From a virus: a stretch of DNA of 64,000 nt. The notes below the pieces were generated by a model that saw nothing but the letters and a program-made list of their open reading frames with translations, had not been told where the DNA came from and did no database searches. A program made the translations under genes and the position numbers. Below are positions 11,833 through 60,992 of the stretch, in pieces (the stretch's first letter is position 1; every line of letters begins with the position of its first letter). The stretch lies in IMG/VR virus record IMGVR_UViG_3300030693_000013, one strand, 5' to 3'.

Positions 11833-12413
11833 TGGTCGATGGTCCGTACGGTACTGGCTTTTTAGGCCAGATTGTCAACGTGCATTTTGCGCCGGCGCTG
11901 TGGCTCGCGATCCAGTGCGGCGTCGCCGGCAACGGCACGGAGAACATTACGATCGCGCTTGGAAGTGGCCCGTCGTTCAACACTATCACGAACAGCGTCG
12001 GTTGGTCGAAGCCGGGCACTCTGCCGATCATCAAGCCCGACCCCATTATCTCTGGCTCCGGGAACACCCAGCTGTCCGGATACCTTATCGGCCGCGGGCT
12101 GCTGGTGGCGATCGGACCCAAGTTCCTGCCGTCTGGCACCCCGTTCACCATCCTCGCCAACTGCTCCAGCGGGCTTGACATGTTTGGCGACAGCGGCGCG
12201 GAAACCGTCGGTGTCAACCTCTTGGATGGCACCAAGGCGGTCCTTGCCGGGCAGGATGCGTTCAATAACCTCGTCACCGTGGACCCCGCGCAAGGCTTTC
12301 TATCAGGCGCCACGCGCACCACGAACGTGATCTCGGGCGGCTCGGTGCTTAGTTTCAATATCGACCCGGTTCACAAGACAGTTACAGGATCGGGTGGCGT
12401 CCCCGGGGCTTAA
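11832..12413 (+). CDS. Hypothetical structural protein
   Basis: TAATG-coupled in the tail operon. Confidence 0.55.
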   Translation: MVDGPYGTGFLGQIVNVHFAPALWLAIQCGVAGNGTENITIALGSGPSFNTITNSVGWSKPGTLPIIKPDPIISGSGNTQLSGYLIGRGLLVAIGPKFLPSGTPFTILANCSSGLDMFGDSGAETVGVNLLDGTKAVLAGQDAFNNLVTVDPAQGFLSGATRTTNVISGGSVLSFNIDPVHKTVTGSGGVPGA

Positions 12414-12425
12414 CCGCTTTTTAAC
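12410..12425. promoter_or_regulatory. CtrA-type box TTAA-N7-TTAAC
   Basis: TTAACCGCTTTTTAAC, 42 nt upstream of the ATG at 12468. Confidence 0.6.
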
Positions 12426-34224: not shown

Positions 34225-34675
34225 GTTCAGCGAACTCCACCTGCTGTTGGGCGAAGTGCTTCGCAGCCTGCTCCATGATCACGCACAGCGGCTCGGAGAG
34301 ATACACGATCTCCACGCCCTCGCTCTGCAGGGCCACGGCGAGGCGCTGCTCGGCCTGTGCACCGTTCGATTTCTCCCAGCCCGGGAGCATCATCACAGTG
34401 TCGGCCTGTTTGCAGATGAACTCGCAGTCCTCGGCGAGTGCTTGGCGAAGCGAGAAGCCTTCGTTGGCGGCTTGTTTCTCATCGCCGGTGGGGTTGCCGG
34501 CGGATAGATCGTTGCCCAGCCGTTCAATGTCTTTTTCGGCGGGGTTGAAAACAGTGTGGCCGTCTTTGCGCAAGAGGGAAGTGACGGCATGGAATCGGGG
34601 GAAGTTGAAATGTGGGATGCCCCGCATGGGTCCCGCAAGATAGATGCTTTTTGGCTTATCGTCTAAACCGCTCAT
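34193..34675 (-). CDS. DUF4406 family (nucleoside deoxyribosyltransferase-like fold)
   Basis: IYLAGPMRGIPHFNFPRF...VFNPAE...MLPGWEKSNGAQAE. Confidence 0.85.
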   Translation of the reverse strand: MSGLDDKPKSIYLAGPMRGIPHFNFPRFHAVTSLLRKDGHTVFNPAEKDIERLGNDLSAGNPTGDEKQAANEGFSLRQALAEDCEFICKQADTVMMLPGWEKSNGAQAEQRLAVALQSEGVEIVYLSEPLCVIMEQAAKHFAQQQVEFAERAKAGENALA

Positions 34676-37361: not shown

Positions 37362-37399
37362 ATCTCGTTCCTCCATTCGTGAGATTTGACTTTTGCTCC

Positions 37400-37455
37400 G
37401 TGAGTTGTTATCCCGCAAGCGCGTGCACGGGCAGCGATGCGGGATAACAACTCAC
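37400..37455. repeat. Perfect 18-bp inverted repeat
   Basis: GTGAGTTGTTATCCCGCA-N20-TGCGGGATAACAACTCAC, intergenic. Confidence 0.9.
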
Positions 37456-37474: not shown

Positions 37475-38782
37475 TCATCGCTTCGGGTGGATACGAACGA
37501 CGTCGCCGTAGGGGTACTTGACGTCCGTGGTGCTGGCCCAGATTGTCAGATAATCGGGCTCGTTTTTCGGGAAGCTGACGTAGCCGTCCGTGAACCCAAT
37601 GAACACCTCAGGCCGTTCTTGGTGGGTATCGATCCAGTCCATCACCGGCGTGACGCTGGTACCGCCGCCACCGCCTGCACCGTCTTTGTCCAGCGATGCC
37701 TTCATAGCGGCCATGTCGGAGGCTTCAGCCAGCTCGTCGACACGGTGGATCGCCGCGTCACACCAGCAGATGCTCAACCGTTTCGGGCAGCAGTCATCCA
37801 CGATCGCGCCCAGCTCGGCGAGATACTTGGACAACTCCAGCTGGCTGATTGAGCCAGAGGTATCGCACCAGACGACCACCCAGCCGGCGCCATTGCCGGA
37901 CTTGGACGGCAGCGCGATATCCTGCCAGATGTAACGGCGATCGGGCTTGCGCCAGTTGTAGCTGCCGCTACCGACCTTGCGGTTGAAGATGCCGCGGATG
38001 TGATCGGTCCAAGGCACTTCAGGTTCAAGGATATCCTTGAACATGCGCTTCAGCGCCCCGGCCATGTTACCTTGCGCCTTCATGTTCTCCAGCGTCTGTG
38101 CGGCCGCCATTTCGACGCCCCACTGCTGGGAATTGCGCTGGTGCTGCTTACCGTTGGACTTCCCAGGCTTCAGCAGCTTATCGAACGGCTGGTGCTTACC
38201 CGTCTTGCTGCCGCCGCTCTCTTCGTCCTCATAGACACGCTTGTAGACTTCGCAGATGCCGTCGCTGGCTTTGGCGATGGTGTCATCGCACAGCACATTC
38301 GGCGGCATGCTGCCGATCTTGCTGTCGCGCAGCAGCGGGTTGATCCGGAAGTCCATCGCCTTCTGCATTGTTTCCTCGCGGAACGGCAGTGATCCACCGC
38401 CGTCCATCGGGACTACGCCACGCTGGGCGCATACCCGTAGGAACTCCACGTCGCCATACACATTGTGCATCACTTCGTGACCGATAATGAACACGCGCTC
38501 TTTCAGATTGTACTTGCTGAAGAACGGATCGGGATTGATCAGGATGTTCTGCGCGTCGGTCGCTGCTGTCGGCACGTCTCGCGTCGGCACGATGCCGTAC
38601 TTGCCGTCATTGTTGATCAGCAGCTTGTAGAACAGATGGCGGAAGCCGGGCGCTGTCCAGCTCATGAGGCTCATAGTCTCGCCCCATGCAGCTTCCTGCG
38701 CGGGAGTGAGCACACAAGGCTCGGGCATCTTGTCTTCCACTTCCTGATCAGGCGGTGGCGGGGCGATTTTGGTCTTGGCCAT
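37475..38782 (-). CDS. Metallopeptidase-like (HExxH) + vWA domain protein (DUF2201-like)
   Basis: TAATD...IIGHEVMH...DFRIN; vWA MIDAS-like CDTSGS, GGGGGTS, FTDGY. Confidence 0.85.
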   Translation of the reverse strand: MAKTKIAPPPPDQEVEDKMPEPCVLTPAQEAAWGETMSLMSWTAPGFRHLFYKLLINNDGKYGIVPTRDVPTAATDAQNILINPDPFFSKYNLKERVFIIGHEVMHNVYGDVEFLRVCAQRGVVPMDGGGSLPFREETMQKAMDFRINPLLRDSKIGSMPPNVLCDDTIAKASDGICEVYKRVYEDEESGGSKTGKHQPFDKLLKPGKSNGKQHQRNSQQWGVEMAAAQTLENMKAQGNMAGALKRMFKDILEPEVPWTDHIRGIFNRKVGSGSYNWRKPDRRYIWQDIALPSKSGNGAGWVVVWCDTSGSISQLELSKYLAELGAIVDDCCPKRLSICWCDAAIHRVDELAEASDMAAMKASLDKDGAGGGGGTSVTPVMDWIDTHQERPEVFIGFTDGYVSFPKNEPDYLTIWASTTDVKYPYGDVVRIHPKR

Positions 38783-39484
38783 TATCTGTCCTCATCGTTC
38801 AGGGTTTCACTAATGAGACGAATTTTGCTGTACGCATTCTTCGCCTCCATGATGCACTTCCAGATATCCTCCTCAAGTGCTTCTTGGTCGAACCGCGACA
38901 ACCGTTCGATCAGGAAGCGCTCGGCGAACGAACGGAACCGGGTGTCAGGGCTGCGTCGGGCAGTGGCTTGTCCCGCGGCCGGCATTACCGCCTGAGCCAT
39001 GCCAGACGCATTGTTCTGCTGCGAACCCTGAACCATGGTCGCAAGCTGTCCCACCCGCTGCTGGCTCGAGACTGTATCGTAGCCTTTGCGATACGCGCGG
39101 TTCAGCGCCGGATCACAGTTCTGCAGATAGCTTGGCGGGATGCCTTGTCGGGCATGCTGCGCCCCCTCGGCGTAGGCGCGCCGCTCGTCGGGGTTGCTAT
39201 AGGCCATTTTTCAGCGCCTCCATCATCTCGCTGCTGATCGGCTGAATTTCGTCGTCCTCAACCAGCCCGTTGATATCCTTCAGGTCCATCAGCATGATGT
39301 TCCTGTGGGCATAATGATTAGTCTCGCTGTTCATGTCCACCTTGGTTGAGCCCTTGATATCAGTGAGCAGCTCGGCAGTTGCGACCAGCTGCTGGCACGC
39401 TTTTAAGAATGTCTTTTCGAACTCTGGCGCCTTGCCGCTGTCAGTGAAGTTGACCCGCAAGCGCAAATTGAACTCTGTCTGCAT
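38782..39484 (-). CDS. Two hypothetical genes (38782-39207, 39197-39484)
   Basis: Lie between the AAA+ and vWA genes; both have RBSs. Confidence 0.5.
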
Positions 39485-39524
39485 TTTCTCCTCCGTTGGT
39501 TACTGTGGCAGTAAGAATTGACCA

Positions 39525-39544
39525 CGGCGGCCCGAAGGCCGCCG
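39525..39544 (-). terminator. GC-rich C(UUCG)G hairpin after the AAA+ gene
   Basis: Minus strand CGGCGGCC-TTCG-GGCCGCCG just after the stop; weak U tail. Confidence 0.5.
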
Positions 39545-39555
39545 GACGTCAATGC

Positions 39556-40722
39556 TTATTGCGACAACGCGCTCAATACCGTGACGAGCGTTGCGTTCTT
39601 CGCGATCCAAGCCTGCATCGCCGGGTGGTTGACGATGCCCTTGTAGTCGCGTCGGAGCAGGGCCGAAATGAACGTGATGCTCATATCCTTGGGCATTTTC
39701 GTTCCCTGCGCGTCTGGCGTCGTCATGTACTCGATGACTTGCGCCAGATGCTCGGACTTTGCATACGATGCCAGTTGGTAGGCCATCAGCATTTGCATGT
39801 CCGCCTTGGTCGGACGAGGCGTGCCCTTGGGATCAGCGACAACATCCTCATACGCTGGCAGCTGAAGCATGAACTCCAGATGCGCTAACAGGCTCTGTGC
39901 GGCCGGCTGACCGATCGTGCCTGCGATTGCCGTGATGGTGTTCGCGTCCACCTCGGTATTGCCCTGATCCTCCCACTTCACTTGCAGGTATCGATCTACG
40001 GCACACAGCTGCCGCGGGTTGCACCACGGTCCCTGCTCCTTGGGCTCGCCCTCGAACAGGATATCCGGGTGGTTCTTGGCCCAGGCTTTGATCACCGGGG
40101 TAGTCTGCCATTTGCGCCCTTGGTGAACGTATGGCTTGTCGGCGAATGCCAGCCACAACTCGGCGTCTGGGTCGATGTGGATCGCAGTACGGCGTGCGAT
40201 ACAGAAGTCAAAGTCTTTGGTCACGCCATATCGTGGCCCAACATTCGTAGCGCCAACACGAACTGAGCCGGGTGGAAGATACCACGGCGCAGTGCCGCCA
40301 TTGAGCAGGATTTCAGCGGCTGACCGCTTGGTGTCCGGCTCGCCCTGACCGTACTCGTCAAGGATCAGGAAGCAGCGATCGAACATGAACGCGGGCTGCG
40401 GCGGTCCGCCCAGTCCGTCCGTCATCATGTACCAGAGCGGGCAGCTCGGGTCGGTGACAGTGATGGTGCGCTCAACACCGTCGATCATGTATTTGCGCTC
40501 GCCCTTGAACAGAACGCCCACCATGTCCATCGGCGTTTGGGTCGCCAAGAACACTGTGCTGACGCCCCAACGAACTCCGGTCTTGAGGCCCTCGTCGCGG
40601 AGCTGCTCGAATACTGAATAGAGCATCTGGCTCTTGCCAAAGCCCGACTGGCTGTCCACTAGAACAGCGTTGCCGGCTTTCGCCATTGCCATGATCTCTG
40701 CTCGTGCCTGCATAAGGTTCAT
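39556..40722 (-). CDS. MoxR/CobS-like AAA+ ATPase
   Basis: Walker A SQSGFGKS, Walker B LILDE, GATN, CIARR, WCNPRQ; GAGGAG RBS. Confidence 0.8.
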   Translation of the reverse strand: MNLMQARAEIMAMAKAGNAVLVDSQSGFGKSQMLYSVFEQLRDEGLKTGVRWGVSTVFLATQTPMDMVGVLFKGERKYMIDGVERTITVTDPSCPLWYMMTDGLGGPPQPAFMFDRCFLILDEYGQGEPDTKRSAAEILLNGGTAPWYLPPGSVRVGATNVGPRYGVTKDFDFCIARRTAIHIDPDAELWLAFADKPYVHQGRKWQTTPVIKAWAKNHPDILFEGEPKEQGPWCNPRQLCAVDRYLQVKWEDQGNTEVDANTITAIAGTIGQPAAQSLLAHLEFMLQLPAYEDVVADPKGTPRPTKADMQMLMAYQLASYAKSEHLAQVIEYMTTPDAQGTKMPKDMSITFISALLRRDYKGIVNHPAMQAWIAKNATLVTVLSALSQ

Positions 40723-40812
40723 GATCTCTCCTCTTTGTTGGGGCTGACGGCCTTCGTCAGGTGGCGTCTCACGCCACGATGGCGCCGCGTCGGGCACGGC
40801 ACCATTTCGGCC

Positions 40813-41016
40813 TTATCGGAACAGCCAAGAAATGACGCGACAGAATGCCCAGTATCCTGTCGCCGCACCCAGCAGGATCACAGGGGCGGCCATGTCGTCT
40901 GCGGTGCGAATGCGGCCAGCATGGATCGCCGCAGCAAAAATGATCCATCCAAAGAACGCAGTCCAGCCACTGAGCATAGCCATCTTGCGGTAGGCGCCAG
41001 ATAAATTCATGTTCAA
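40813..41016 (-). CDS. Small membrane protein
   Basis: Two TM-like helices. Confidence 0.5.
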   Translation of the reverse strand: MNMNLSGAYRKMAMLSGWTAFFGWIIFAAAIHAGRIRTADDMAAPVILLGAATGYWAFCRVISWLFR

Positions 41017-41040
41017 AACCTCCGTCGGTTGGGGGTGAAG

Positions 41041-41646
41041 TTACGTCAGTCCAAGCATCTCATTAAGTGCCTGCATTTGTACAGCAGGAACTCCGATCGG
41101 CGGCGCAACAAGCGGCGGCGAGGCGAAGAACTTTTTGCCCTCGGGCCAGATGGTGACTAGCTTCTCGGTGGTGCGCACGCTCTTCAGCAGCAGCTTCAGC
41201 GTGGCTTCGGCACTGGTCTTGTCTTTCTTCAGCGTCTCGCTGTCGCCCTGCCACTGCCTGATCTCGTTGACCAGCTTCTCGTGCTTGTCGAGCGACAGTA
41301 TGCCGTAATTGTCGTAGTTGTAGTAGTTGTATGGCACAGCCACCTCGATCCGCTTGGAAAACTTGCCTTCTGCATCCTTCGCGAAATACTTTGCTTGCAG
41401 CAGCACAGTCTGCCCGGCGACGTTGATCTTCAGCTGGTTCGTCATCTTGAACCACTCGATATTGGGCCGCCCTTCAACGGCCCTGAACTTCTCGATCATG
41501 TGGCGCATTGAGAGCGGCGTCACCGCGTTGTAAGCGCGAACGAACAAGTCTTGCTCGTGCTTTTCGAGTTTGATCTGCTCGTCAATGAATTTCTTCATTG
41601 TGGCGTTGCGAATGATCTCTTGTCGGATGGCTTGATTTAACTGCAT
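41041..41646 (-). CDS. Nmad5-like (nucleotide modification associated domain 5) protein
   Basis: MQLNQAIRQEIIRNA...LLKSVRTTEKLVTIWPEG pattern. Confidence 0.6.
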   Translation of the reverse strand: MQLNQAIRQEIIRNATMKKFIDEQIKLEKHEQDLFVRAYNAVTPLSMRHMIEKFRAVEGRPNIEWFKMTNQLKINVAGQTVLLQAKYFAKDAEGKFSKRIEVAVPYNYYNYDNYGILSLDKHEKLVNEIRQWQGDSETLKKDKTSAEATLKLLLKSVRTTEKLVTIWPEGKKFFASPPLVAPPIGVPAVQMQALNEMLGLT

Positions 41647-41649
41647 GGC

Positions 41650-43695
41650 CTACCTTTCCCACACGTAGTGCGGATTGCTGAGAATGTAGCGGCCCACCAG
41701 CCGATCATGAGCAACAGCGGCGCTGGCTTTCATGATATCGAACAGTGTCCGCTCCATCGCGATGGCTTCCGCTTGTCGCGCATCGGCAGTGCCTGCCAAC
41801 GCCTTGCGGAAGTAGTTGTCGAAGATTTCCCGGTGCTCCGGGGTCAGATGCTTGCGTGTGCTCACTACGACCTCCCTGTTGGAATGGACAGCAGGATCAT
41901 CATCACGCCAAGCGTGACAATAAAGCCCTGCTGGTTGTTGAAGCCGATGTAGATCGCGAGAATGCTCGCGATCCTCACGGCGTTGTCTTGTAGGTGCCGA
42001 GACGCTTGCGCAGGCTGTCGCGGGCATTGATGATCTCAGGGCTCTTGTCCTGCGCAGTGCCGTGCGACGCACTGCCATCGATCAGCTTGTCAAGCCGCTT
42101 TACTGTGGCAGCAATGATATCGGCGGCGCTCATGTCGTCGGGCTGCGGGCGGAACAGGAACTGGTCCAGCTGGTCCTCAGGGATCAGGTGGTCGATCTTC
42201 ATTTGCGCCCTCGCATAGTTGAGGATGCAGTTCTGCGCGTCATAGAGCGTCTTGGCGACCGCAGGGTTGGCTTTGTGCTTGGCGCGGCGTGCCAGCAATT
42301 CGTTGGTGGTGTTGATCGGCTCGCCAACGCCACCCTTGGGCCATGCACCGAACCGCACCATGGCGCGGACACAGCTTGCTACCTTGCTGTGCTTCGGCGA
42401 TTTGGTATCGAGTGGCGCATTGCCGGTCGATGCCGTGACATACTCCATGGCGATCTTGCCGGCATCGTCAATGTCGGCGCCATGCTTGTTGTGCTTCAGG
42501 TCGAGCACACCCAGGTAGCTGCCCTCCAGTGTCTGGAGCATCAGCTTGGCTTGGGTATCCTTGCCCTTGCCGCTCGCTGTGCCCAGCTCACGGGCGATAG
42601 CGAGCACGTCGTCGAAACTTGGTTTGTTCGTCATATGCTTTCCTTTCAGTACGCTCTGGTGAAACGCCGCTCGGCTTTGGCGGCCGCTTGTTCGGCGCGT
42701 CGGGCACGCCGCCCGTCGCGCTGAATTTCCAGCCACACTGTATCGATCAGTGAGGCTAGCTTGTAGTTCGCATAGATCATGCCGCTCGGCGTGTGGCAAT
42801 TCCAGACGTAAGAAGCACTCGGAGGCAGATGGTTCAAGCGACTAAATTGATATCCGGGTGTCAACGCGATCTGCGCCATCATTACGCGCTGTGCGTCGCT
42901 CAACTCCGCAATGTCGATCTCTTCATCTGTCTGCATCAATCGTCTCATTATAGTAGCGCGCGATCATCATCAGCAGGACGCTCAGGCCGATCGCGAGCTG
43001 CGATACGTCGATCATATCATTGCGCGCTGTCCAATGTCTAATGGCGCCCCAGCCGACGAGCCGAAACTGCCAGCCGGCCATCACATACTGCGCCATCTGC
43101 ACGCGCTGCGCCTCGGTCAGCGCCTCAATGGTCGTTTCCTCAAGTGTGCGCAGCATCTGTCACCTTTTTTGCCCAGCTCATTGCCGTGGTCTTGCTGAAG
43201 AACCATGGGAAGCGCGATGGTCTGACCTGTTCATTCTCAGCGATATCCTTGGGCGGTAGCGCGATCCACAAGCCACGTTTGAGGTAGTGATCGTCGACGA
43301 TGGCACCGTGTATGCCCATCATCGGCAGTGACTGGCCCTCGAACACCCAGCCGCGGAGCAGCAGTGCCGCCTCCATTGTTCGCAGGTGGTTGTGCCTGCG
43401 ACACTTAACTCTTTTCGTTGGATAGCCCATCGTTGCCACCTTTTTCCTTGGCGATCGTGGTGGCGCGACGTTGCGCCACCTCCTGGAGGATCATCATTAC
43501 ACCATCGGCCATCAAGCCGCACGCCGCCATGGTGGTAATCAGCTCGCGACGCTCCGCTATCGCGTGGAGCGCCTTGCTGATCGCGCGGATTTGCGTGTTG
43601 TAGAACTCGCCATCCTCGAACGTCATTGGGGTAACACTTCGACTGCCCAGAGGATCAGCTGCAACAGCAGCCAATAGGTGATGGCAGCGCTGCAC
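41650..43695 (-). CDS. Early-region small hypothetical genes (41650-41865, 41975-42634, 42646-42948, 42923-43156, 43140-43439, 43405-43695)
   Basis: Densely packed co-oriented ORFs; several starts are uncertain. Confidence 0.45.
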
Positions 43696-43752: not shown

Positions 43753-44166
43753 TTAATCCGCATTGATCAACCTTTCTATGGTTTTGGGGGTGATATCCTC
43801 GCGCAGGTACAGCCCACGGCGCTGCAATTCTTCGCGCAAGTCCGCGAGTGAGTGCAGACCGAAGTTAGGCAAGCGCCTCAACTCTGCTGCCGACATTGAG
43901 ATTACATCGCGCAACGTGCGGCAGTTCGCGTACTTCAGGCAATTCGCAACGCGAACGCTGACTTCCATCTCATCGGCCAGCTCGTCCAGCGGGTCAACGA
44001 TTTCAGGCGGCTGCGCAGCAGCGAGCATGGCCTTGCGGAGTTTATCGTTGCGCTCAATGAGCGCGACGTTCTTCTGTGCATAGTCGATGAACAGTCGCTT
44101 GACGTTCAAATCGAGACGCTCGAACGCTAACAAGGCGTTGTCTAGCGTCGGTATATAATTGCCCAT
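43753..44166 (-). CDS. RNA polymerase alpha subunit C-terminal domain-like protein
   Basis: LDELADEMEVSVRVANCLKYANCRTLRDVISMSAAELRRLPNFGLHSLADLREEL matches the alpha-CTD helix-hairpin-helix consensus. Confidence 0.85.
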   Translation of the reverse strand: MGNYIPTLDNALLAFERLDLNVKRLFIDYAQKNVALIERNDKLRKAMLAAAQPPEIVDPLDELADEMEVSVRVANCLKYANCRTLRDVISMSAAELRRLPNFGLHSLADLREELQRRGLYLREDITPKTIERLINAD

Positions 44167-44935: not shown

Positions 44936-45000
44936 TCAAAAAGCGGGGGAGCCAGGGTCCTAGGCGCAAGGCCATTGTGGGTCCAGCTACGGCTCCCCCT
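44936..45000 (-). terminator. Putative intrinsic terminator
   Basis: Minus strand GGGGGAGCC...GGCTCCCCC stem followed by GCTTTTT, just after the 45030-45287 stop; unusually large loop. Confidence 0.5.
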
Positions 45001-45029
45001 AGTTTGCTGAAGCGAGCAGGGAGACAAGC

Positions 45030-45287
45030 CTACTCGTTCAGGAACGCCATCCTGCGGCCGAAGATGGTGCGGCGCGCTTCGGAAGCACTATCAGCCCACG
45101 CCCACGCCATCGGCTTGACCGGCCGGTTGGTGACGCTGTCAGCGACATATGCCGCGTATGCCCGTTCAGCATCGGCATCGCCAATGCTGAGATGGAACCC
45201 GGCACGAGTGCGCCGGCGGATGACCATGCGGTCGATGCGGCTGGTGGTCCGTGGGTCATGATCTGGGAACTTGACTGTGCGGCTCAT
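45030..45287 (-). CDS. First gene of the leftward early operon (hypothetical)
   Basis: GGAGAG RBS before MSRTVKF. Confidence 0.5.
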   Translation of the reverse strand: MSRTVKFPDHDPRTTSRIDRMVIRRRTRAGFHLSIGDADAERAYAAYVADSVTNRPVKPMAWAWADSASEARRTIFGRRMAFLNE

Positions 45288-45459
45288 TGTGCTCTCCGTG
45301 GTTGAGTGACGCCGTTTGGCCGTCGCGATTGCCGCGTCGGGCGGCGGCCCCAATCCACGCGCGCGAGGGGCTAATAGGGCGTTTATCGGCATGATGAATG
45401 GCCGCTGGCAGCGCGGGAGGCGCTGCCTTGCGCGGGTAATTGGGGGAGAGTTCATATGG

Positions 45460-45930
45460 TAATTAGGTAGTGGTTTGGGGCTTCAGAAAAACAGGTTGCT
45501 TTTTGGTAATGTTAGGGGATGGAACCCGAGTACAACCTGAATGGGTCTAAATGTCTAAATGTAATGTCATTTTTTGGGTGGGTCGTATAGAGGGTCGCCC
45601 TATGGCCCGTGTACATTACAAAATTGTAACCTTTTTTTCTTGATGTTCCCGGCTCCGGCTAAGTCATTGTTTTCTTTATATATTTTAGTCCATAGTACCT
45701 TAAATCAAGAAGCTGCGCTGACATTTAGCTGCCGGGCGAAAATGACCTCAGGGGCCTTAGGGCGATTCTCTATATGCCCGACCCGAAAAAACACCTGACA
45801 TTTAGACATTTAAAAATTTTTCGGGCGAAAAGGTAACAAGATCAAACACTTGTAAATGTCAGCACACTTTCCCCGGAGGCTGACATTAACACACAACCGC
45901 CTATGAGCGTAGAAAATAAACGCATTAATT
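45460..45930. repeat. AT-rich divergent control region with iterated TAAATGTC/GACATTTA motifs
   Basis: Copies at 45548, 45556, 45562, 45720, 45797, 45805, 45853 and 45882; lies between divergent operons. Confidence 0.75.
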
Positions 45931-46012
45931 CGCGATGCAACCTGCCGTTGCCCGACGGGGCGAGATTGCCGGGCCGAATAGCTCGGTCCGGTTTCACACA
46001 AAGGAACCTGAC

Positions 46013-46372
46013 ATGACCGCATCATCCACAACGGAAGAACCAAAGGTTAACTGGGTTGTCATCGATGTGAACGCTCTACCCGCAGAAGCTGCAAAGCTGT
46101 TTGTGGAACAAAAAGCGCTCTATCATGCCTACGTCGAAGGCAAGCTGCGCTGGCAGAACCAGATGATTAAAGACGCGGACCTTGGTGAAGGCGAAACACT
46201 CGCTTTCAACTTCAAATTTGGCAACACCAGTTACGGAGTTGTCCCGGTCAAAACGGCAACAAAGACTTCTCGCAAGGCGGTTTCGTTCGCGGAAAGCATT
46301 GCGGCCCACAAGGCCAAGGTTGCGGCCGCCGCTGCTACCGAAGCACCGCGATTGATCAAAAAGGTAGCGTAA
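46013..46372 (+). CDS. Hypothetical protein, first rightward gene
   Basis: AAGGA RBS; basic Ala/Lys-rich C-terminus. Confidence 0.6.
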   Translation: MTASSTTEEPKVNWVVIDVNALPAEAAKLFVEQKALYHAYVEGKLRWQNQMIKDADLGEGETLAFNFKFGNTSYGVVPVKTATKTSRKAVSFAESIAAHKAKVAAAAATEAPRLIKKVA

Positions 46373-46658
46373 TAAGACAAGGCAAAGGTGGCGCGACGTT
46401 GCGCCACCGCTGCCCGACAAGGCAAAGGTGGCACCCTGACATGGTGCCACCTTCAAACCACCCGGAAAGGGCGAGACAATGAGCAAAGCGATTGTTATTT
46501 ATCTGCGCAAGCTGGAACTGCAGAAGTTCCGTAACGGCTAGAGCGAGAGCTACCCCAAGCGGGCACGAGGGTTTATCCCCCCGCCCGCTTGGACAGCCCC
46601 GCGCTCTTGGCTTCGCCAAGAGGGGGCCTGAAAATATGTAGGGGGTAAAATCCGAGCC

Positions 46659-46673
46659 TTAAGACTTTATTAA
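46659..46673. promoter_or_regulatory. CtrA-type box TTAA-N7-TTAA
   Basis: TTAAGACTTTATTAA, intergenic, upstream of 46680. Confidence 0.6.
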
Positions 46674-46679
46674 GGTGGC

Positions 46680-47477
46680 ATGGGTAAAAAGGTGTCACCC
46701 TTACCCCAACCCAGGATTTTCCCCATGGCATCCATCCCAGCCCAGCCACTCGAGAGCCTCGACTACGAGCCCTACATGGACATCCCGCGCGAGGACTTCC
46801 ACGAGTTCGTTTCCGATATCGTGAAGGCGCTCACCAAGAAAAAGTTCAGCCGCAAGGATCGCATCGAAGCTGCCGAGCTGATCGGCGCCATCGCCGTCAC
46901 CCTCGAGACGGCATATCATGATGCCACCCAGGCGCTCGATGGCGCAGTCACCGACTACTTCATCGATCGCTTCAAGGGCGACGACGACAATGGTGACAAG
47001 AGGAACGCATACAGGTTCCAAATCGGCATCATGCCGATCGCCTCCGACACCCACCGTCCGATGACGGAGGACGAGATGTTCGAGCGCCGCGCCACCCCGA
47101 ACGCCAAGCTGTACAAGAAGCTGGAGAAGCAGGGGCTCAGCCACGACGAGATCGTGAAGCTGCTGTTTGAAGGCGACGAGAAGACACGAATGCGTGATGG
47201 TGACACCCCTTCACCCTGGGCCGTGCCCCCGGGCACCTTCGACCCTGCTGAGGAGGTCGGTATCGAGGTTAGTAGCGACCCCCAACGCGATACGCCCTTC
47301 GGCGACGATGTTAACCCCGAGGCGCCCCGTGCCGGCTGGCTCGATGCCGACTGGAGCGATATACACAATATGCCGGATGATCCCAAGCCGACGCTTGACA
47401 CCGCGCAGGAGCTGGGGCAAGAACACGCGCCGAAAATAATTAACGGTAATGTGGAGCAGATCACAGACGCCGCCTGA
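46680..47477 (+). CDS. Acidic hypothetical protein
   Basis: Long ORF with GC3-rich codons; the start may be a later ATG. Confidence 0.55.
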   Translation: MGKKVSPLPQPRIFPMASIPAQPLESLDYEPYMDIPREDFHEFVSDIVKALTKKKFSRKDRIEAAELIGAIAVTLETAYHDATQALDGAVTDYFIDRFKGDDDNGDKRNAYRFQIGIMPIASDTHRPMTEDEMFERRATPNAKLYKKLEKQGLSHDEIVKLLFEGDEKTRMRDGDTPSPWAVPPGTFDPAEEVGIEVSSDPQRDTPFGDDVNPEAPRAGWLDADWSDIHNMPDDPKPTLDTAQELGQEHAPKIINGNVEQITDAA

Positions 47478-47708
47478 ACTACGTACTAAAAAGCCCCCGA
47501 CGATCCGTACTTCCGGGACTGTCGAGGGCTCTTAAACGGCCGGCTTACCACCTAGGTGGTGGGTCTGTTCCTGAATGGGGCATCATGAGTGCTCCGGTTG
47601 GGGTTGGTGTCGGCGCGGTGGATGTATCCGCCCGACACCAACACCTTACTACCTTGACACGTTCCCGGCTGAGCAAAACAGCTCACTACACAATGAAGTG
47701 ATCGCGAC

Positions 47709-48165
47709 ATGATCTTGAACTCCGACAGCGTTCGACTAGCAGGCGAGCTGATCTTTGCCGCCATGCTGTTCGTCGGACTTGTGCTCTGGGCCGACAAGAT
47801 CGAGAGTAAGAAGGCTGCACGCGCGCGCGACCGCGCCAAGCGGCTCACGCATAAGAGAGACGACGATGACAAACATGTTTAAGGAGTGTCGACTTGCCGC
47901 ACAGTCCTGCAAAGACGAGGTCAAGCGCGCCGCGCTACGTCATCGGACCGACGAGTGTAAAGAGGTCTTTGACCGGTTCAACCTGTCGGCATCTCGTGAG
48001 GACATGGAGGCTCTCGTTGCAGCTTGGACCCGCATGGTGCGTGCTCTTGATCGGGTGGCTCCTCTACCTGACGGTGATCCTGCTGGCGCCGGCCGGCTCC
48101 GCGCCCCTGGCACCACTTTTGTTCACGATCCTGACATATACGACGCCTTAAGGAAGGTAGCCTAA
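47709..48165 (+). CDS. Two small genes (47709-47882 membrane protein; 47866-48165)
   Basis: Read manually: MILNSDSVRLAGELIFAAMLFVGLVLW..., then MTNMFKECR... Confidence 0.45.
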
Positions 48166-48262
48166 ATAGAGAGTGGGCCCGCCCGCCCGTGGAGAAGCCG
48201 GCATAGCACCGGGTACTCTTGTCTGTTGGGGACGAGGCAGCGGCGGGTCCACTTAATTTTTC

Positions 48263-48297
48263 TTGACACTCGCCCGGCGGCAGTTACTGTGGCAGTA
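48263..48297 (+). promoter_or_regulatory. Sigma70-like promoter overlapped by the palindromic site
   Basis: TTGACA (48263-48268), 16-bp spacer, TACTGT -10-like element that is the left half of TACTGTGGCAGTA (48285-48297). Confidence 0.6.
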
Positions 48298-48319
48298 ACC
48301 AACCAGAGGGAACACCCCC

Positions 48320-48946
48320 ATGCCGCTGCAGCTCGTCATCACCGAAGACCCATCCAAAGAAGTCAACATCTTCGACATCGACCCACTCGACCGGGCGCGC
48401 GCCGTCCGCCTCGCCGACGAGGGCATCCCCGTCCGCGCCATCGCGAGAGGACTTAAAGTGCCGAGCGACACTCTCTATGATGCGCTGCGCGAGGCGCTCG
48501 AGGAGGGCCGCATCTGCGAGCTGCCACGAGACGACTGGCCACCCGGGAGCGCGCGCAGCCAGCGCGCCATATATGCCGGCACCATCCTCGAGAACGAAGA
48601 CCAGCTGCAGATGATCTGCGCCCGGGTCTTCAAGACCACCAAACAACAGTCGGCAGTCGTCGCCGTCCTGATCAAGCGCCGGGAGATCACCAAGGCGCAG
48701 GTCCACATCATCCTGCAAGAGAACCGCCCCGCCTCCAACCACGCGCCCACCGACGAGAAGATGGTCGACGTGGTCATGTTTCACATCCGCAAGAAGCTGA
48801 AGGTCCACGAGGTCCCGATCGACACCATCTGGGGCACCGGCTACGCCATGCCGGCCGTGCACCGCGACCGCGCCATCAAGCTGCTAGAGGAGAACGCCAC
48901 CGCCTACGCCGCGTACCCGGGCGTCGAAACGAAGGAGGCCGCGTGA
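48320..48946 (+). CDS. Transcription regulator: N-terminal HTH + OmpR/PhoB (CtrA-like) winged-helix domain
   Basis: GIPVRAIARGLKVPSDTLY (HTH); EKMVDVVMFHIRKKL...IDTIWGTGY parallels the CtrA segment LKIIDVFICKLRKKL...IETVWGRGY. Confidence 0.8.
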   Translation: MPLQLVITEDPSKEVNIFDIDPLDRARAVRLADEGIPVRAIARGLKVPSDTLYDALREALEEGRICELPRDDWPPGSARSQRAIYAGTILENEDQLQMICARVFKTTKQQSAVVAVLIKRREITKAQVHIILQENRPASNHAPTDEKMVDVVMFHIRKKLKVHEVPIDTIWGTGYAMPAVHRDRAIKLLEENATAYAAYPGVETKEAA

Positions 48947-49004
48947 TGTTGGAAGGTCAAGACGACGGCATCCTGCTCATCATATTGGTCATTGCCATTA
49001 TCAT

Positions 49005-49379
49005 GTGTGTCATATGACAACCTCGATCATCGACGAGGACGTGCTGCTCACCATGCTCCACGCGCCTGTGACCAAGGAACACATCCAGCAGCTCCAGACC
49101 GGCGCCGCCTACACGCTGCTCGACATGTACGATCGCAAGGTGACACGCGAGGAGTATATCATCGGGATGCAGATGGCGCTCGATGCCTACAACTCGCTGG
49201 GGAAGCTGTGGGTGCTCGCGGTGATCGAGAACAAGGTCGCCGCCGGCGCGCCGCTTGAACCTCTGCTGGCGGCCAGCTACAAGGCGGTGGAGGAGCTGGG
49301 CGCAGAGCAGGCCACCGCGCTGATCGCGTACGTCAAGCGGCTGAAGGAATGCCCAGAAACAGGGGACACGATAAATTGA
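49005..49379 (+). CDS. Hypothetical protein
   Basis: Helical ORF with GC3-rich codons. Confidence 0.5.
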   Translation: MCHMTTSIIDEDVLLTMLHAPVTKEHIQQLQTGAAYTLLDMYDRKVTREEYIIGMQMALDAYNSLGKLWVLAVIENKVAAGAPLEPLLAASYKAVEELGAEQATALIAYVKRLKECPETGDTIN

Positions 49380-50176
49380 GCGATCTCGAGGACACAGGGT
49401 TTGACGACGTGCTTGCCGGCGGTGCAGTTTGGACCGAGCCCGATACGTCAAACGTGACTGGACCAAATGCCATCACCATCGAACCAGCCCCGGCCGTTCC
49501 CCTATCACCACACGTATGCAAATCTTCCAGCGGAGATCGGTGCGATACATGTTTTGGGCCTGTCCCAGCTTCGGACGCCCCCGAAAAAATCCAGGCGCCG
49601 CTCACCGCGGAAGCCATTGAGGCTACTAAAATCCTCGTTACGCTCCCGCCGCTCAGCTACGCTGATCTCGCTATTCTGGCACGCGAGGTGGCAATGGATA
49701 TTAGGGTCCGAAATGAAGTTCTCTCGGGGTTCAATTTAAACGAGACACAGTATGAGTACCTCGAAACGCACAACGAGTTCTACAAGCACGCCCTCAAAAC
49801 GGCGTGCGTCGAGTGGCATAGTCCGCTCTCCTCACAAGAACGGGTGCGTCTTGTGGCTTCGACCATCCTCGAGGAAACCCTACCCAGGTTGGGAGCTAGG
49901 ATGCACAATGACCGCGAGCAGCTGCCCGGCGTCGTCGAAGCTGCTAAACTCTTTGCAAAAATGGCCGGTGTGGGTGAGCGAGACACTGGGGCTGCGCCTG
50001 CTGGCGAACGTTTCGTTATTAACATTGACCTCGGCGGAAACAAAAAAATTGTCGTTGGAGCAGAAGCGCCAAAGGCGATCGCTGCTGGGATCGATACATC
50101 AGGCGCGCAGGGTGGCGTCTGGCCAACACAATTTGAGCTGCCGGAAGTACAACCAGACCCCGAAGGGAAAAGCTAA
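49349..50176 (+). CDS. Putative terminase small subunit
   Basis: Upstream of TerL; helical core and a C-terminal ERFVINIDLG strand; start uncertain. Confidence 0.55.
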   Translation: MPRNRGHDKLSDLEDTGFDDVLAGGAVWTEPDTSNVTGPNAITIEPAPAVPLSPHVCKSSSGDRCDTCFGPVPASDAPEKIQAPLTAEAIEATKILVTLPPLSYADLAILAREVAMDIRVRNEVLSGFNLNETQYEYLETHNEFYKHALKTACVEWHSPLSSQERVRLVASTILEETLPRLGARMHNDREQLPGVVEAAKLFAKMAGVGERDTGAAPAGERFVINIDLGGNKKIVVGAEAPKAIAAGIDTSGAQGGVWPTQFELPEVQPDPEGKS

Positions 50177-50310
50177 CCAGCACCGGGTTAATCACAGCCT
50201 GCAGACTGCCGCGAGGAAGCACAACTATGAGCTCAGCCCCAAGGGCCGGGCTCGCAAGCATCGATATGCAACGTCGCCATTGGGGCGATCGAATAAGAGG
50301 AAGTACCAAC

Positions 50311-51459
50311 ATGCCATCCGCGCCAACCAAAACCGATCTCGACAAGCTGCATGACGCCGAGAAGATCATCCGCATCCGTCAGCAGGAACTTGCCGATGCC
50401 CGCGCCACCATCAAGCGCCTCACCACCAACGAGGACGATGCGCGCACGATCCGGGAGAACATCTACAAGATTGCCGGCTATGACCCGTCGCCTCCCGAGT
50501 GGACTTTACGTGAGGGTCGAGCAGGTGCGCGGGGTGTACCAGCTACCATCTGGTCCGATTGGCACTACGGCGAAGTCGTCCGGATGCCGGCCATCAACAT
50601 CTACGACAAGCGGGTCGCCAAGCGGCGCATTGAACGACTGGTCCAGACCACCGCTGATCTTGCTCTCAACCATATGGGTCGCGCAAAGATCACTTACCCG
50701 GGCTGCATCGTCGCTCTGGGCGGCGATATGCTCGGTGGCGACATTCATGAGGAGCTGATGAAGACCAACGACCGCACCACGCAGCAGGCGATCGAGGACT
50801 TGATCGACCTGATCAGCGGCGGGCTCGAGACGATGGCTTCAGCTTTCGGTAAGTTGTTCGTGCCATGTGTAGTCGGCAATCACGGCCGCTCCACCAAGAA
50901 GATGCAGATGAAGGAGCGCGTGTTCACTTCCCACGAGTGGAACGTCTATTGCGGCGTCGCTCGGCACTTCCGGAGGAGCAAACATGTCCAATTCTGCATT
51001 CCGGAAACGGCCGATTGCGCCTTCAATATCTTTGATCATCGATACCTGCTTACTCACGGCGACAGCCTGGGTACGAAGGGTGGCGACGGCATCATTGGCG
51101 CGCTCGGACCAATCCTGCGTGGAACACTTAAAACGCATCGAAGCGAAGCGCAAATTGGTCGCGACTTCGATACTCTGCTCATTGGCCATTGGCACCAATA
51201 CATCACGCTGCCGGGCCTCATTTGCAACAACAGCCTTAAAGGCTACGACGAGTATGCTCACCTCACACTACGCGCGCCTTATTCAAGACCTAGTCAAGCG
51301 CTCTGGTTCACCCATCCGGAACACGGAATTACTGCGCATTGGCAAGTCTATCTCGAGGGAAAACTCCAGCCAATGACGACCGCCAAACCATGGTGCTCGT
51401 GGCAAGAGTTTACGGATACGCGGAGGGCCGATGCCGACGCATACCTAGGGCGGATGTAA
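50311..51459 (+). CDS. Calcineurin-like metallophosphoesterase
   Basis: SDWHYGE, GGD, GNHGR, HGD and GHWH motifs. Confidence 0.85.
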   Translation: MPSAPTKTDLDKLHDAEKIIRIRQQELADARATIKRLTTNEDDARTIRENIYKIAGYDPSPPEWTLREGRAGARGVPATIWSDWHYGEVVRMPAINIYDKRVAKRRIERLVQTTADLALNHMGRAKITYPGCIVALGGDMLGGDIHEELMKTNDRTTQQAIEDLIDLISGGLETMASAFGKLFVPCVVGNHGRSTKKMQMKERVFTSHEWNVYCGVARHFRRSKHVQFCIPETADCAFNIFDHRYLLTHGDSLGTKGGDGIIGALGPILRGTLKTHRSEAQIGRDFDTLLIGHWHQYITLPGLICNNSLKGYDEYAHLTLRAPYSRPSQALWFTHPEHGITAHWQVYLEGKLQPMTTAKPWCSWQEFTDTRRADADAYLGRM

Positions 51460-52910
51460 TGGGGATCAACTACAAAGCCCCGCACACCTGCGCGCAGTTC
51501 ATGGCGAGCCAAGCGTTCGGCCGCGTGATCGCTGGGCCCGTTGGGTCCGGCAAGACCACGTCTGCCGTGATCGAAATGCTGCGCCGCTCGATGGAGCAGA
51601 AGCCGGGCGCCGATGGGTATAGATACACACGCCACGCTATCGTCCGGCAAACCCTGAAGCAGCTGAAGGACACCGTGCTCAAGGACTGTCAAGCATGGCT
51701 TGGCGGCCTCGGGCTGTGGAAGGTGTCGGAGGGAGTGTTCCATGTTCAATTCGGTGACGTTCGCTCTGAGTGGGTCTTTATTCCCCTCGAGAATGCAGAG
51801 GATCAGGCTCGCTTACTTTCTATGCAGCTCACAGGCGCGTGGCTCTCGGAGGCAATCGAAATGGACCTTGATGTGCTTGGTCCTTTGTCCGGCCGTCTGG
51901 GCCGCTATCCCTCGGGTGCGCAGGGCACTCCGACATGGCACGGCTGGATTGCGGATACTAACTTCCCGACGGAAATGACGCCGTGGCACCAGTATATGGA
52001 GAACCCGCCGCCGGACATTCAGATTTTCAAGCAGCCGTCTGGCCTGTCGCCCGATGCCGAGAATTTGAATTGGCTGGTGCAAAACGAAGAGAGTATAAAA
52101 TTGCCGATCGACCATCCGGTAAGGGTCGCGCAGGGGAGGAAGTACTATGAGCGCTTTGTCGAGCAGTTCGGCGACAACAGCGACTGGGTGCGCCGCTACG
52201 TCAAGGCCGAGTACGGAGACGATCCTTCAGGAGCCGCGGTCTTCAAAAACACTTTTCGATCCGACTTTCACATCGTCGATGACACGCTCATCATCCCAAG
52301 CTATCCTCTCCTCATTGGCCAAGATTTTGGCCGAAACCCTTGGTCGCTGATATGTCAGATGGATCATTTAGGACGCCTTCTAGTGCACGAAGAGGTGCCC
52401 GGGACCAACGTCGGGCTCGAGAAGCACGTCAATCAAAATCTGCGTCCGCGCCTCTACGGAGCAAAATATCTTGGAATGAAGGTAGCGGTCGTTGGCGATC
52501 CGAGCGGGATTGCCAAAGGGAGTATTGGGGAGGAGAGCTGTTTCGATGCCCTACTTCGTTTGGGGTTCCCCTGTTTCCCGGCGCCGACGAATGATATCGA
52601 GCCGCGGCTGCGCGCGGTGGAAGCGCTCCTGTCCCGCCAGACCAACGGCGGCCCCACTCTCTTGATCTCGCGGGCCGGGTGCCCGTTCCTGTGCCGCGCC
52701 ATGAGCGGCGGCTATCGCTTCACCAAAATGAAAACCGGCGCGCTCCGGACGGTTCCGGACAAGACCGACAAGGAAGGGTTCTCGCATGTGGCTGATGATC
52801 TGCAGTACGTTGCTTCTGTTGTTCACGGTGGCGTCGTCCCAGAGATCACCCGACGACTTCGACCGCGAACCAAGAAAAGACAAGCCATCAGCTCTGCCGG
52901 ATGGACCTAG
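51459..52910 (+). CDS. terL: Terminase large subunit
   Basis: GPVGSGKTT, GAWLSEAIE, IGQDFGRNP and HVADDLQY motifs; TAATG-coupled start. Confidence 0.92.
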   Translation: MGINYKAPHTCAQFMASQAFGRVIAGPVGSGKTTSAVIEMLRRSMEQKPGADGYRYTRHAIVRQTLKQLKDTVLKDCQAWLGGLGLWKVSEGVFHVQFGDVRSEWVFIPLENAEDQARLLSMQLTGAWLSEAIEMDLDVLGPLSGRLGRYPSGAQGTPTWHGWIADTNFPTEMTPWHQYMENPPPDIQIFKQPSGLSPDAENLNWLVQNEESIKLPIDHPVRVAQGRKYYERFVEQFGDNSDWVRRYVKAEYGDDPSGAAVFKNTFRSDFHIVDDTLIIPSYPLLIGQDFGRNPWSLICQMDHLGRLLVHEEVPGTNVGLEKHVNQNLRPRLYGAKYLGMKVAVVGDPSGIAKGSIGEESCFDALLRLGFPCFPAPTNDIEPRLRAVEALLSRQTNGGPTLLISRAGCPFLCRAMSGGYRFTKMKTGALRTVPDKTDKEGFSHVADDLQYVASVVHGGVVPEITRRLRPRTKKRQAISSAGWT

Positions 52911-53194
52911 TGGAGCGCAGCTCCTCCAGTTTCCGGCCCGGGCAAGGGCGCGAGGCCTTTCGCTTCCAGCATTATCACTCGAGCCTTCAGCCGGGCGATC
53001 TTGCGGATACGCCGATTTTGGGCCCAACGTTGTACCGTTGCGCTCTCGGAAATCTGAATTAGGTACCAGATCAGGGCCACGACCGACGCGATCATAGTGG
53101 CGATGGTCGGCAACCACCCTACCCAGGTCGCCACCAGTGTCCCTGCCCCGATCGTGTTGCCCAACCACTGACTGAGGCTGTGATCCGCGTTCAT
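52907..53194 (-). CDS. Antisense holin-like membrane protein (95 aa)
   Basis: GGAG RBS, hydrophobic WLPTIATMIASVVALIWYLIQI followed by basic RRIRKIARLKAR; occupies the TerL-portal gap. Confidence 0.6.
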   Translation of the reverse strand: MNADHSLSQWLGNTIGAGTLVATWVGWLPTIATMIASVVALIWYLIQISESATVQRWAQNRRIRKIARLKARVIMLEAKGLAPLPGPETGGAALH

Positions 53195-53298
53195 TGCGCC
53201 GCTCCTTGTTGTTGACCACAACAGGTAGACGCAAGGCCGTTAACGGGTTCTTAGGGGAACCGGGTCAGTTATACTCGAACCGCAGCGCGAGTATAAAA

Positions 53299-55620: not shown

Positions 55621-55874
55621 TGGCCGGGACCCTCAAAACAGTGATCGTGCTCGCGGGTCCGACCGGACCTACAGGAACCATGAAGGGTGTTAACATCTGG
55701 ACTGGCATGAGCGGACTTTCTGGCGGACATGCGACGTGGCTTCAATACACCGGAGGCAAAGGGCCGAGCGGTATACTCGAGCGCGTCTATCCGCTGGCGG
55801 CAGACGGCGCCGGTTTTACCGGCGCCCACAAGACTGTGTTCATTTCGGGCTACGTCGGCCCGACCGGCTCTTAA
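55620..55874 (+). CDS. Small GPT-containing virion protein
   Basis: GPTGPTG and GPTG motifs; coupled to the portal gene. Confidence 0.6.
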   Translation: MAGTLKTVIVLAGPTGPTGTMKGVNIWTGMSGLSGGHATWLQYTGGKGPSGILERVYPLAADGAGFTGAHKTVFISGYVGPTGS

Positions 55875-55886
55875 GGACATTTTAAC
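55871..55886. promoter_or_regulatory. CtrA-type box TTAA-N7-TTAAC
   Basis: TTAAGGACATTTTAAC upstream of the collagen/glycosylation genes. Confidence 0.6.
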
Positions 55887-60403: not shown

Positions 60404-60985
60404 ATGAGTGTTGAGTATTTAGAGAGCCTGTTTACACGCTTTGGCACTGATAAAGGGACGTGGGGCTACACGGCCTATTATGCCACGGCGATGGAAGCAC
60501 GTCGCTTTGACGTCAAGGCAGTCCTCGAGGTAGGCATCTGCGGCTATCGCGACATTCCGAACAACGTAGTCGGCGCCAGCCTCTTCGTGTGGCGGGAGTA
60601 TTTCCCCAACGCTGAGATTTACGGCATCGACAACGACAGCCGGTTCATCTTCAATGACCAGCCGCGCATCCACACCGCGCTGGCCGACGCCTACGACGTG
60701 GCGTCTTTGTCAATGGCCTTGATCGACTTCAATGTCGGCCGGCCGTTCGACATGATCGTCGACGATGCCGTCCACGACCCCGAGCCGCAGCTCCATCTGG
60801 CGAACATGCTGACCCCGGCGCTGGCCAAGGGTGGCCGCTATTTCATTGAGGAAGCCTGCCCCTACAAGCTGAACGAGCCCTACGAGAAATGGCTCAGCCA
60901 CCGGATCAACCTCGCTGGCGAGATCACGGGTATTCACGCTTGCGTGACCCCGAAGCCCGAGGAGCTGATGATCCTTATTAAGTAG
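60404..60985 (+). CDS. Class I SAM-dependent (sugar O-)methyltransferase
   Basis: GTDK...Y, VLEVGI, GASL..WREYFPNAEIYGID, IVDDAVH, GGRYFIEE. Confidence 0.85.
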   Translation: MSVEYLESLFTRFGTDKGTWGYTAYYATAMEARRFDVKAVLEVGICGYRDIPNNVVGASLFVWREYFPNAEIYGIDNDSRFIFNDQPRIHTALADAYDVASLSMALIDFNVGRPFDMIVDDAVHDPEPQLHLANMLTPALAKGGRYFIEEACPYKLNEPYEKWLSHRINLAGEITGIHACVTPKPEELMILIK

Positions 60986-60992
60986 TTTTTAA
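60978..60992. promoter_or_regulatory. CtrA-type box TTAA-N7-TTAA
   Basis: TTAAGTAGTTTTTAA upstream of the head-assembly operon. Confidence 0.6.

Follow-up and report, generated by a model that had tools for sequence, protein, structure and literature searches.

A putative phage regulator with an N-terminal helix-turn-helix and a CtrA-lineage winged helix at the head of the late module, and CtrA-type boxes before the late genes of an uncultured soil phage clade

CtrA is an essential response regulator of the OmpR/PhoB family that controls the cell cycle, motility and the release of gene transfer agents (GTA) in Alphaproteobacteria. Some phages use the CtrA of their host to read its state (PMC9437464), and receiver-less CtrA domains were found in the Roseobacter phages RDJL Phi1, Phi2, RDJL3 and RDJL6, in Paracoccus phage R3, and also in about 20 phages of Rhodobacter capsulatus. 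Here, a gene of this kind, hereafter REG (P0001, 208 aa), was analyzed in a stretch of 64,000 nucleotides of the virus record IMGVR_UViG_3300030693_000013 (the window, which covers most of an approximately 66-kb phage genome). REG, encoded on the plus strand at 48320..48946, is a divergent variant fused to a helix-turn-helix (HTH), and phage homologs of CtrA without a receiver have been recorded before (RDJL Phi1 gp37, RcSalem gp58). The finding is less new than an earlier, sequence-only reading of this DNA had implied, because such homologs had been described before (Fogg, 2019; PMC6363796). In the literature found, a phosphorylation-free, phage-made CtrA head was only noted in passing and its function never tested, with no functional study of the receiver-less phage homologs. 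What is described here is a large REG family with a constant place at the start of the late module in a widespread clade of soil and peat phages, together with a putative clade-wide promoter code. The testable question is whether these phages respond to CtrA, substitute for it, or do both, and cultured handles exist for the related proteins RcSalem gp58 (Rhodobacter capsulatus) and RDJL Phi1 gp37.

RDJL Phi1 gp37 (151 aa, annotated as 'transcriptional regulator CtrA') is a phage-encoded, receiver-less CtrA DNA-binding domain that falls in the same tree clade as REG. This copy lacks the response-regulator N-terminus and is located between homologs of gafA and rcc01866 (Fogg, 2019; PMC6363796). 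It is far closer to CtrA than REG is (55% identity) and has no N-terminal HTH; moreover, it is carried by a GTA-like siphophage, whereas REG heads a packaging module. RcSalem gp58 (201 aa, 'helix-turn-helix DNA binding domain protein'), like its counterparts in about 20 related RcD-type phages, is organized as REG is, with an N-terminal HTH followed by a CtrA-like winged helix in a protein of about 200 aa. Its hhalign alignment with the REG family reached a probability of 98% and an E of 2e-13 over 147 columns, it is the top scorer with the hidden Markov model (HMM) of the REG C-domain, and it is the sister of REG in the tree (support 92/74, with a long-branch caveat). Unlike that of REG, its N-terminal HTH is a GafA-like DUF6456 domain (Pfam 1.2e-7; hhalign E 9e-10): alignment of the REG N-domain with five DUF6456 domains gave an hhalign probability of 0.5%, and no Pfam DUF6456 match was obtained. 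The RcSalem genome is of the Casjensviridae, and its early or DNA-metabolism region contains the gp58 gene.

GafA, which directly activates the GTA of Rhodobacter capsulatus, is also CtrA-linked, has two DNA-binding domains and follows a regulatory logic like the one proposed for REG. It switches on the head-tail-packaging cluster in Alphaproteobacteria (PMC6363796, PMC9638019). The GafA domains are DnaA-like and sigma-like, not OmpR-like, and no sequence relationship to REG was detected. In the Brevundimonas genome G005 (contig 7, 18891-20917), a GafA-like DUF6456 gene was observed about 1.5 kb from ctrA. Mor/C of phage Mu and Ogr of phage P2 are small late activators that bind a dyad at or near the -35 of late promoters without a good -35; this class is a works-like parallel to REG only, and its folds and motifs are unrelated.

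REG is a real, conserved gene. A start at 48253, as in the sequence-only reading, takes in the promoter, and the open reading frame is confined to 48320-48946. A search of 5.8 billion proteins returned 164 homologs at E<=1e-3; among the 120 matches listed, lengths ranged from 114 to 220 aa and many were encoded on contigs of 62-69 kb. An exhaustive profile search gave 671 clusters (50% identity, E<=1e-10), the best 150 of which have a common layout. Additionally, 77 REG loci were collected from IMG/VR, and in every one with sufficient flank REG adjoins the same packaging module (a small ORF, a terS-like gene, an exonuclease-like gene, terL and portal), either collinear or with the terS-terL block inverted. 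By tblastn, REG had no match at E<=1e-3 in 50,697 phage records; profile searches were needed to reach RcSalem gp58, RDJL gp37 and EVB29_062 of Rhizobium phage RHph_TM27A. No relatives of REG were detected in 185,579 species genomes by a pattern-limited scan, which is only weak evidence against prophage copies.

The N-terminal domain (residues 21-70; 48380..48529, +) carries the invariant motifs LADEG.P..I.R and DDWP, and conservation within the family is highest in an N-terminal stretch (LADEGIPVRAIAR, then ELPKDDWPPG). Residues 22-63 match Pfam HTH_23 (E 2.3e-6, above cut-off); among 30 family members this match was obtained in 11 and a resolvase HTH_7 match in 10. An AlphaFold2 model, built with a 30-sequence alignment (mean pLDDT 86), has two domains, with a linker of low confidence (76-88) between them. 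Its N-domain has three helices (residues 22-62), and VIA-align related residues 14-62 to the Tc3 transposase HTH (Z 6.0). Where CtrA has a receiver with a phosphorylatable residue (Asp51), the N-terminal 80 residues of REG are an HTH, and no Response_reg match was detected in REG or in any of the 120 listed homologs.

The C-terminal domain (residues 90-197; 48587..48910, +) is a divergent OmpR/PhoB-type winged helix, assigned to the CtrA clade by profile and tree. In the model it spans residues 93-197, with helices at 93-104, 108-119, 125-134 and 148-161, the last being the recognition helix (48761-48802, +), a hairpin wing at 168-176 (strands 168-170 and 174-176) and an extra C-terminal helix at 179-197; the order of elements is that of the OmpR/PhoB fold (alpha1, beta, alpha2, recognition helix alpha3, hairpin wing). 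VIA-align matched it to PmrA (Z 7.8, rmsd 2.6 over 82 residues), VanR (7.7) and DrrB (7.3), and the fold matches the DNA-binding domains of PmrA, VanR and ArlR at Z 7.4-7.8; the Z values of both REG domains are middling. The REG family profile matched OmpR/PhoB DNA-binding domains of the PDB (E 2e-5), and most REG homologs carry a precomputed match to Trans_reg_C (PF00486). In REG itself the PF00486 match is partial (residues 140-176, 25.2 bits vs. a cut-off of 26.2) and covers only profile positions 39-76 of 77. A single-sequence PDB search with REG gave nothing significant, and Foldseek gave no PDB match at E<=0.001. With two putative DNA-binding domains and no receiver, this phage-encoded protein must act without phosphorylation, as had been proposed from the sequence alone.

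The kinship of the winged helix was analyzed with ctrA genes obtained by scanning genomes for a recognition-helix peptide, whose matches were almost all from Alphaproteobacteria; the encoded CtrA proteins read ...EPELKIIDVFICKLRKKL...IETVWGRGYVLR. Five genomes (Rhizobium, Brevundimonas, Maritimibacter, Sphingomonas and Bosea) were profile-searched with the REG C-domain, and the best match was ctrA in all five (36-39 bits, identities checked), 8-16 bits ahead of the runner-up OmpR paralog (20-28 bits). In a local hmmsearch with the C-domain HMM, RcSalem gp58 scored 41.5 bits, the five CtrA proteins 35-37 bits and RDJL Phi1 gp37 32 bits (32-41 for the phage CtrA-likes overall), and 23 other OmpR paralogs reached 13-26 bits. 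A maximum-likelihood tree, with a paralog set drawn from five genomes only, placed the 23 paralogs on one side and REG, CtrA and the phage CtrA-likes on the other (support 100/100), and the grouping of REG with CtrA kept a support of 98/94 when the phage intermediates were left out. Long-branch attraction is unlikely, because the CtrA partner lies on very short branches and REG on a long one.

The family consensus reads ...TDPKMVDVVIC[H/K/N]LRKKLKP...IETVWGTGY, in which the recognition helix is KMVDVVIC[HKN]LRKKL and the wing IETVWGxGY; the CtrA counterparts are KIIDVFICKLRKKL and IETVWGRGY, and the two share K-x-x-D-V-x-I-C-x-L-R-K-K-L and IETVWGxGY. The T170-K171 pair of CtrA is retained as 'TK' in the REG family, and the stretch holding Thr170-Lys171 is critical for the promoter choice of CtrA (Delaby et al.; PMC6847485). 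REG and CtrA are about 26% identical over 105 aa, and with the NCBIfam CtrA equivalog NF045991 REG scored 16.6 bits and its relatives 25-29 bits vs. a cut-off of 350; REG thus derives from the CtrA DNA-binding lineage and is not CtrA itself. Judged by these comparisons, the winged helix belongs with the CtrA lineage as a derivative and not an ortholog, and CtrA is its nearest cellular relative. The sequence-only reading had placed the C-terminus close to CtrA and had named a phylogeny as the way to check it; the domain indeed groups with CtrA and not with unrelated OmpR proteins.

Together with the recognition helix, CtrA and REG probably share the target geometry TTAA-N7-TTAA. The window contains four perfect TTAA-N7-TTAA boxes vs. 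0.04 expected, and a TTAA-N7-TTAG box at 53240 makes five, all of them at gene boundaries before plus-strand late genes. The box at 46659..46673 (TTAAGACTTTATTAA) stands at the head of the rightward operon containing REG. The one at 53240..53254 (+, TTAACGGGTTCTTAG) lies 45 nt before the portal ATG (53299) and is kept about 45-60 nt before this ATG in nearly all lineages, palindrome-bearing (see below) or not. Those at 55871..55885 and 60978..60992 are located after the portal gene, before fibre and glycosylation genes, and before the head-gene block, respectively; the first position is also occupied in L010, L011 and L073, and the second box is identical (TTAAGTAGTTTTTAA) in the relatives G002 and G025. 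The fifth, at 12410..12424, is 43 nt before the ATG of the ORF 12468-14357.

The same pattern was observed across 68 non-redundant relatives (963 kb), in which spacers of 3 to 12 were counted. TTAA...TTAA occurred at 54 sites with the N7 spacer vs. 3-14 at each other spacer, and TTAA...TTAG at 36 vs. 4-15, with no N7 peak for other AT-rich dyads. The non-coding share of both kinds of box was 81% vs. a background of 12.8% (p<1e-20). In one sub-clade (L014, L022, L028, L029, L043 and L046), a CtrA-type box lies directly 5' of REG. The box at 46659 is itself part of a conserved non-coding module 2-3 kb upstream of REG (46633-46700), which consists of AATATGTAGG, an A-tract, the box and then GGTGACAAGGTGA.

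This module, at the start of the rightward arm, shows a short direct repeat (GGTGACA-AGGTGA) after the box and recurs in L002, L005, L007, L009, L011, L012, L017, L031 and L060. At the portal, a hairpin with a 9-bp stem (TTATACTCG ... CGAGTATAA, 53269-53296) was found between the box and the ATG, with equivalent inverted repeats in L002, L007 and L012. A small leftward ORF (52907-53221, -) starts back to back with the portal promoter box; since this arrangement recurs in relatives, the portal box lies in a divergent promoter region.

REG itself is preceded by a sigma70-like promoter, read from the sequence, with a -35 hexamer TTGACA (48263..48268, +) and, after a 16-nt spacer, a -10-like hexamer TACTGT (48285..48290, +), followed by a Shine-Dalgarno GAGGGA 8 nt before the ATG (48306..48311, +). 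TTGAC(A) is kept about 45-65 nt 5' of the REG ATG in most relatives, in which the -10 position reads TAGTGT or TAGGGT. A sigma70 consensus scanner called no promoter within 45000-51000; that of REG went uncalled because its -10 matches only 3/6. The -10 is overlapped by a palindrome (TTACTGTGGCAGTAA, 48284..48298), as the sequence-only reading had reported, which measures 15 bp and is one copy of a genome-wide TTAC-N7-GTAA family. Single TTAAC half-sites, some of them TTAACCAT, lie between or just past the -35 and -10 of the REG promoter in many relatives (L003, L008, L009, L011, L015, L038, L041, L045 and L068), and are possible feedback or CtrA input sites.

The reading that is tentatively preferred, at somewhat less than an even chance, is that REG is a phosphorylation-independent, CtrA-mimicking activator of late genes that would read the CtrA-type boxes. 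Established are the gene, its two-domain layout, its CtrA kinship, its conserved promoter and synteny, and the enrichment of mostly non-coding, N7-specific boxes. REG is built from a winged helix of the CtrA lineage, with a small HTH in the place of the phospho-receiver, and would be expressed from its own promoter of the host sigma70 type. Lacking a receiver, it would be independent of the CckA-ChpT phosphorelay. REG would bind the TTAA-N7-TTAA/TTAG boxes in the promoters of the packaging/portal, fibre and glycosylation, head, and tail/ejection genes, and would activate the host RNA polymerase there as the late-gene switch of the phage. The box at 46659 and those directly upstream of REG in the sister sub-clade would provide an input for host CtrA or a positive feedback. 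In this proposal it would be REG, not host CtrA, that occupies the boxes, with activation as the presumed effect, and the N-terminal domain may supply dimerization or a second contact with DNA or RNA polymerase. The earlier suggestion that REG could take the place of CtrA at late promoters, or compete with it there, agrees with the presence of boxes before late operons across the clade. In line with the proposal, RHph_TM27A has neither a full-length REG nor a perfect box.

Several observations weigh against this proposal. Three complete REG-bearing genomes have no perfect TTAA-N7-TTAA, and one of them lacks even the TTAG form; a relaxed motif is only about 2.6-fold enriched over a reversed-pattern control (122 vs. 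47). The recognition helix of the window (VVMFHIRKKL) is further from CtrA than the family consensus. In the AlphaFold2 model, the N-terminal four-stranded beta-sheet of OmpR/PhoB domains is absent and helix 93-104 takes its place, which, with the extra C-terminal helix, makes this a shortened and reshaped winged helix. Domains of the OmpR family usually bind DNA as dimers driven by their receivers, and REG has no recognized dimer interface. Finally, host CtrA alone could explain the boxes, because it binds such boxes in other alphaproteobacterial phages (PMC9437464).

A more far-reaching version, possible but held with less assurance, is that REG is a constitutively active surrogate of CtrA, in which the copied head, the missing phosphorylation switch and the box-wired late promoters would form one device, with phosphorylated host CtrA (CtrA~P) triggering the REG operon through the box at 46659.

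That host CtrA reads these boxes is a serious alternative, and one that is also compatible with the activator model. In its exclusive form, considered unlikely, host CtrA~P would read the boxes and REG would compete with CtrA, as an anti-CtrA or host-takeover factor, or bind another related site. The binding of CtrA to phage boxes was shown experimentally in other, 'lytic deferment' phages (PMC9437464) and was suggested for phage Jorvik (PMC10589892); the boxes of the window match the host consensus, a DNA-binding domain without a receiver could compete dominantly, and a phage protein similar to the C-terminal domain of the RNA polymerase alpha subunit (alpha-CTD) points to tampering with activator-dependent host transcription. 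However, a lytic phage would still need a timing device for its late genes, and REG is the sole candidate found: the ORFs scanned near REG and in the early arm yielded no further transcription factor, sigma factor or RNA polymerase. REG is also present throughout the clade, always at the start of the late module, and RHph_TM27A, without full-length REG, has no perfect boxes.

The palindrome overlapping the REG -10 was analyzed as another candidate target. TACTG-N3-CAGTA is present in 20 copies in the window (<=1 mismatch) vs. 0.56 expected, and the wider TTAC-N7-GTAA family has 28 sites, from 4072 to 61858. Exact TACTG-N3-CAGTA is absent from all 77 relative loci. The possibility of a palindrome unique to this phage was dropped, as the dyad analysis revealed a conserved outer TTAC...GTAA with a lineage-specific inner pair. 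In an unbiased dyad count over the 963 kb of non-redundant relatives, TTAC-N7-GTAA ranked top, with 115 sites vs. about 4 expected. The clade-wide form is TTAC-xy-N3-y'x'-GTAA (L001-L074, G001-G029), the inner pair of which is symmetric: CG in most lineages, GG in L002 and L064, TG in this window, and AG in L069 and L070.

A REG that binds TTAC-N7-GTAA, as an autoregulator at 48284-48298 and a global repressor or organizer at about 20 sites per genome, is nonetheless improbable. The palindrome has the 4-N7-4 geometry of the CtrA box with a half-site one base different, overlaps the REG -10 here, where whatever binds it could repress REG, and lies 5' of REG in L033, L059 and L067. However, the copy number over 24 complete genomes is bimodal: 14 genomes have 5-25 copies (13 of them at least 10), and the remaining 10 have 0-4, equal to control, although REG is present in all 24. 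In a presence/absence table of 11 complete genomes, the palindrome tracked perfectly not REG but three leftward genes, 37475-38782 (-, phrog_1314 ATPase), 39556-40797 (-, phrog_1297) and 41975-42799 (-), and partly 36648-37418 and 38782-39207. The gene 41975-42799 was present in all 18 palindrome-bearing loci with enough upstream reach and in none of 12 palindrome-free ones. Moreover, 71% of the copies lie inside genes (29% non-coding), and no covariation was detected between the inner pair and REG residues of the recognition helix (position 201), the wing or HTH helix 3. Therefore, the autoregulation through this palindrome that the sequence-only reading had suggested did not hold up: the family is mostly genic, missing from 10 of 24 REG-bearing genomes and linked to the 37475-42799 (-) module. 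By sequence distribution, the palindrome is probably not the conserved site of REG itself.

The cultured phage RHph_TM27A (MN988461.1; regions of note 10644-10701, 34663-34977, 18408-18971 and 28817-30094) shares the terminase-portal layout with the clade. It lacks full-length REG and has only a divergent, stand-alone 104-aa homolog of the C-domain (EVB29_062); no perfect CtrA-type box was found in its genome, which contains 14 TTAC-N7-GTAA palindromes vs. 0 for the control. A palindrome stands in the portal/terS divergent promoter slot and about 130 nt upstream of the C-domain homolog, positions that speak for the reading in which REG binds the palindrome. This phage also carries homologs of the palindrome-linked genes and could be used to study the palindrome in the laboratory.

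A last explanation, that REG serves packaging as a DNA-recognition accessory (a pac-site or small-terminase partner) and not as a transcription factor, draws on its invariable position beside the packaging genes b49349, b50227 and terL and on the HTH and winged-helix domains common in small terminases, but it is very improbable given the CtrA-lineage recognition helix, the promoter-located boxes, a separate terS-like gene (49349-50176, phrog_36773) and the lack in REG of the oligomerization domain typical of small terminases.

The source of the window is an uncultured peat-soil phage, and its relatives form a clade of uncultured phages of 62-69 kb. Its DNA was found again in many peat metagenome runs; the sequencing runs listed with the region are peat metagenome DNA only, with no RNA sequencing run among them. 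The leftward early arm (23.9-45.5 kb) encodes a primase-helicase, a SNF2 helicase, PolA, a PD-(D/E)XK nuclease and nucleotide-modification-type genes, and the rightward late arm begins near 45.9 kb; the window also holds an exonuclease-like gene and codes for a large terminase and an SU10-type portal. The alpha-CTD-like protein mentioned above is encoded as a stand-alone protein at 43753-44166 (-; Pfam RNA_pol_A_CTD, 7e-14), and no homolog of it was detected by tblastn in the 10 complete relatives tested. Additionally, dATP/dGTP diphosphohydrolase N-domain, DUF4406 and Nmad5 matches of the nucleotide-modification type were observed at 33709-34675 (-) and 41041-41646 (-), and from such genes the phage DNA may carry modified bases.

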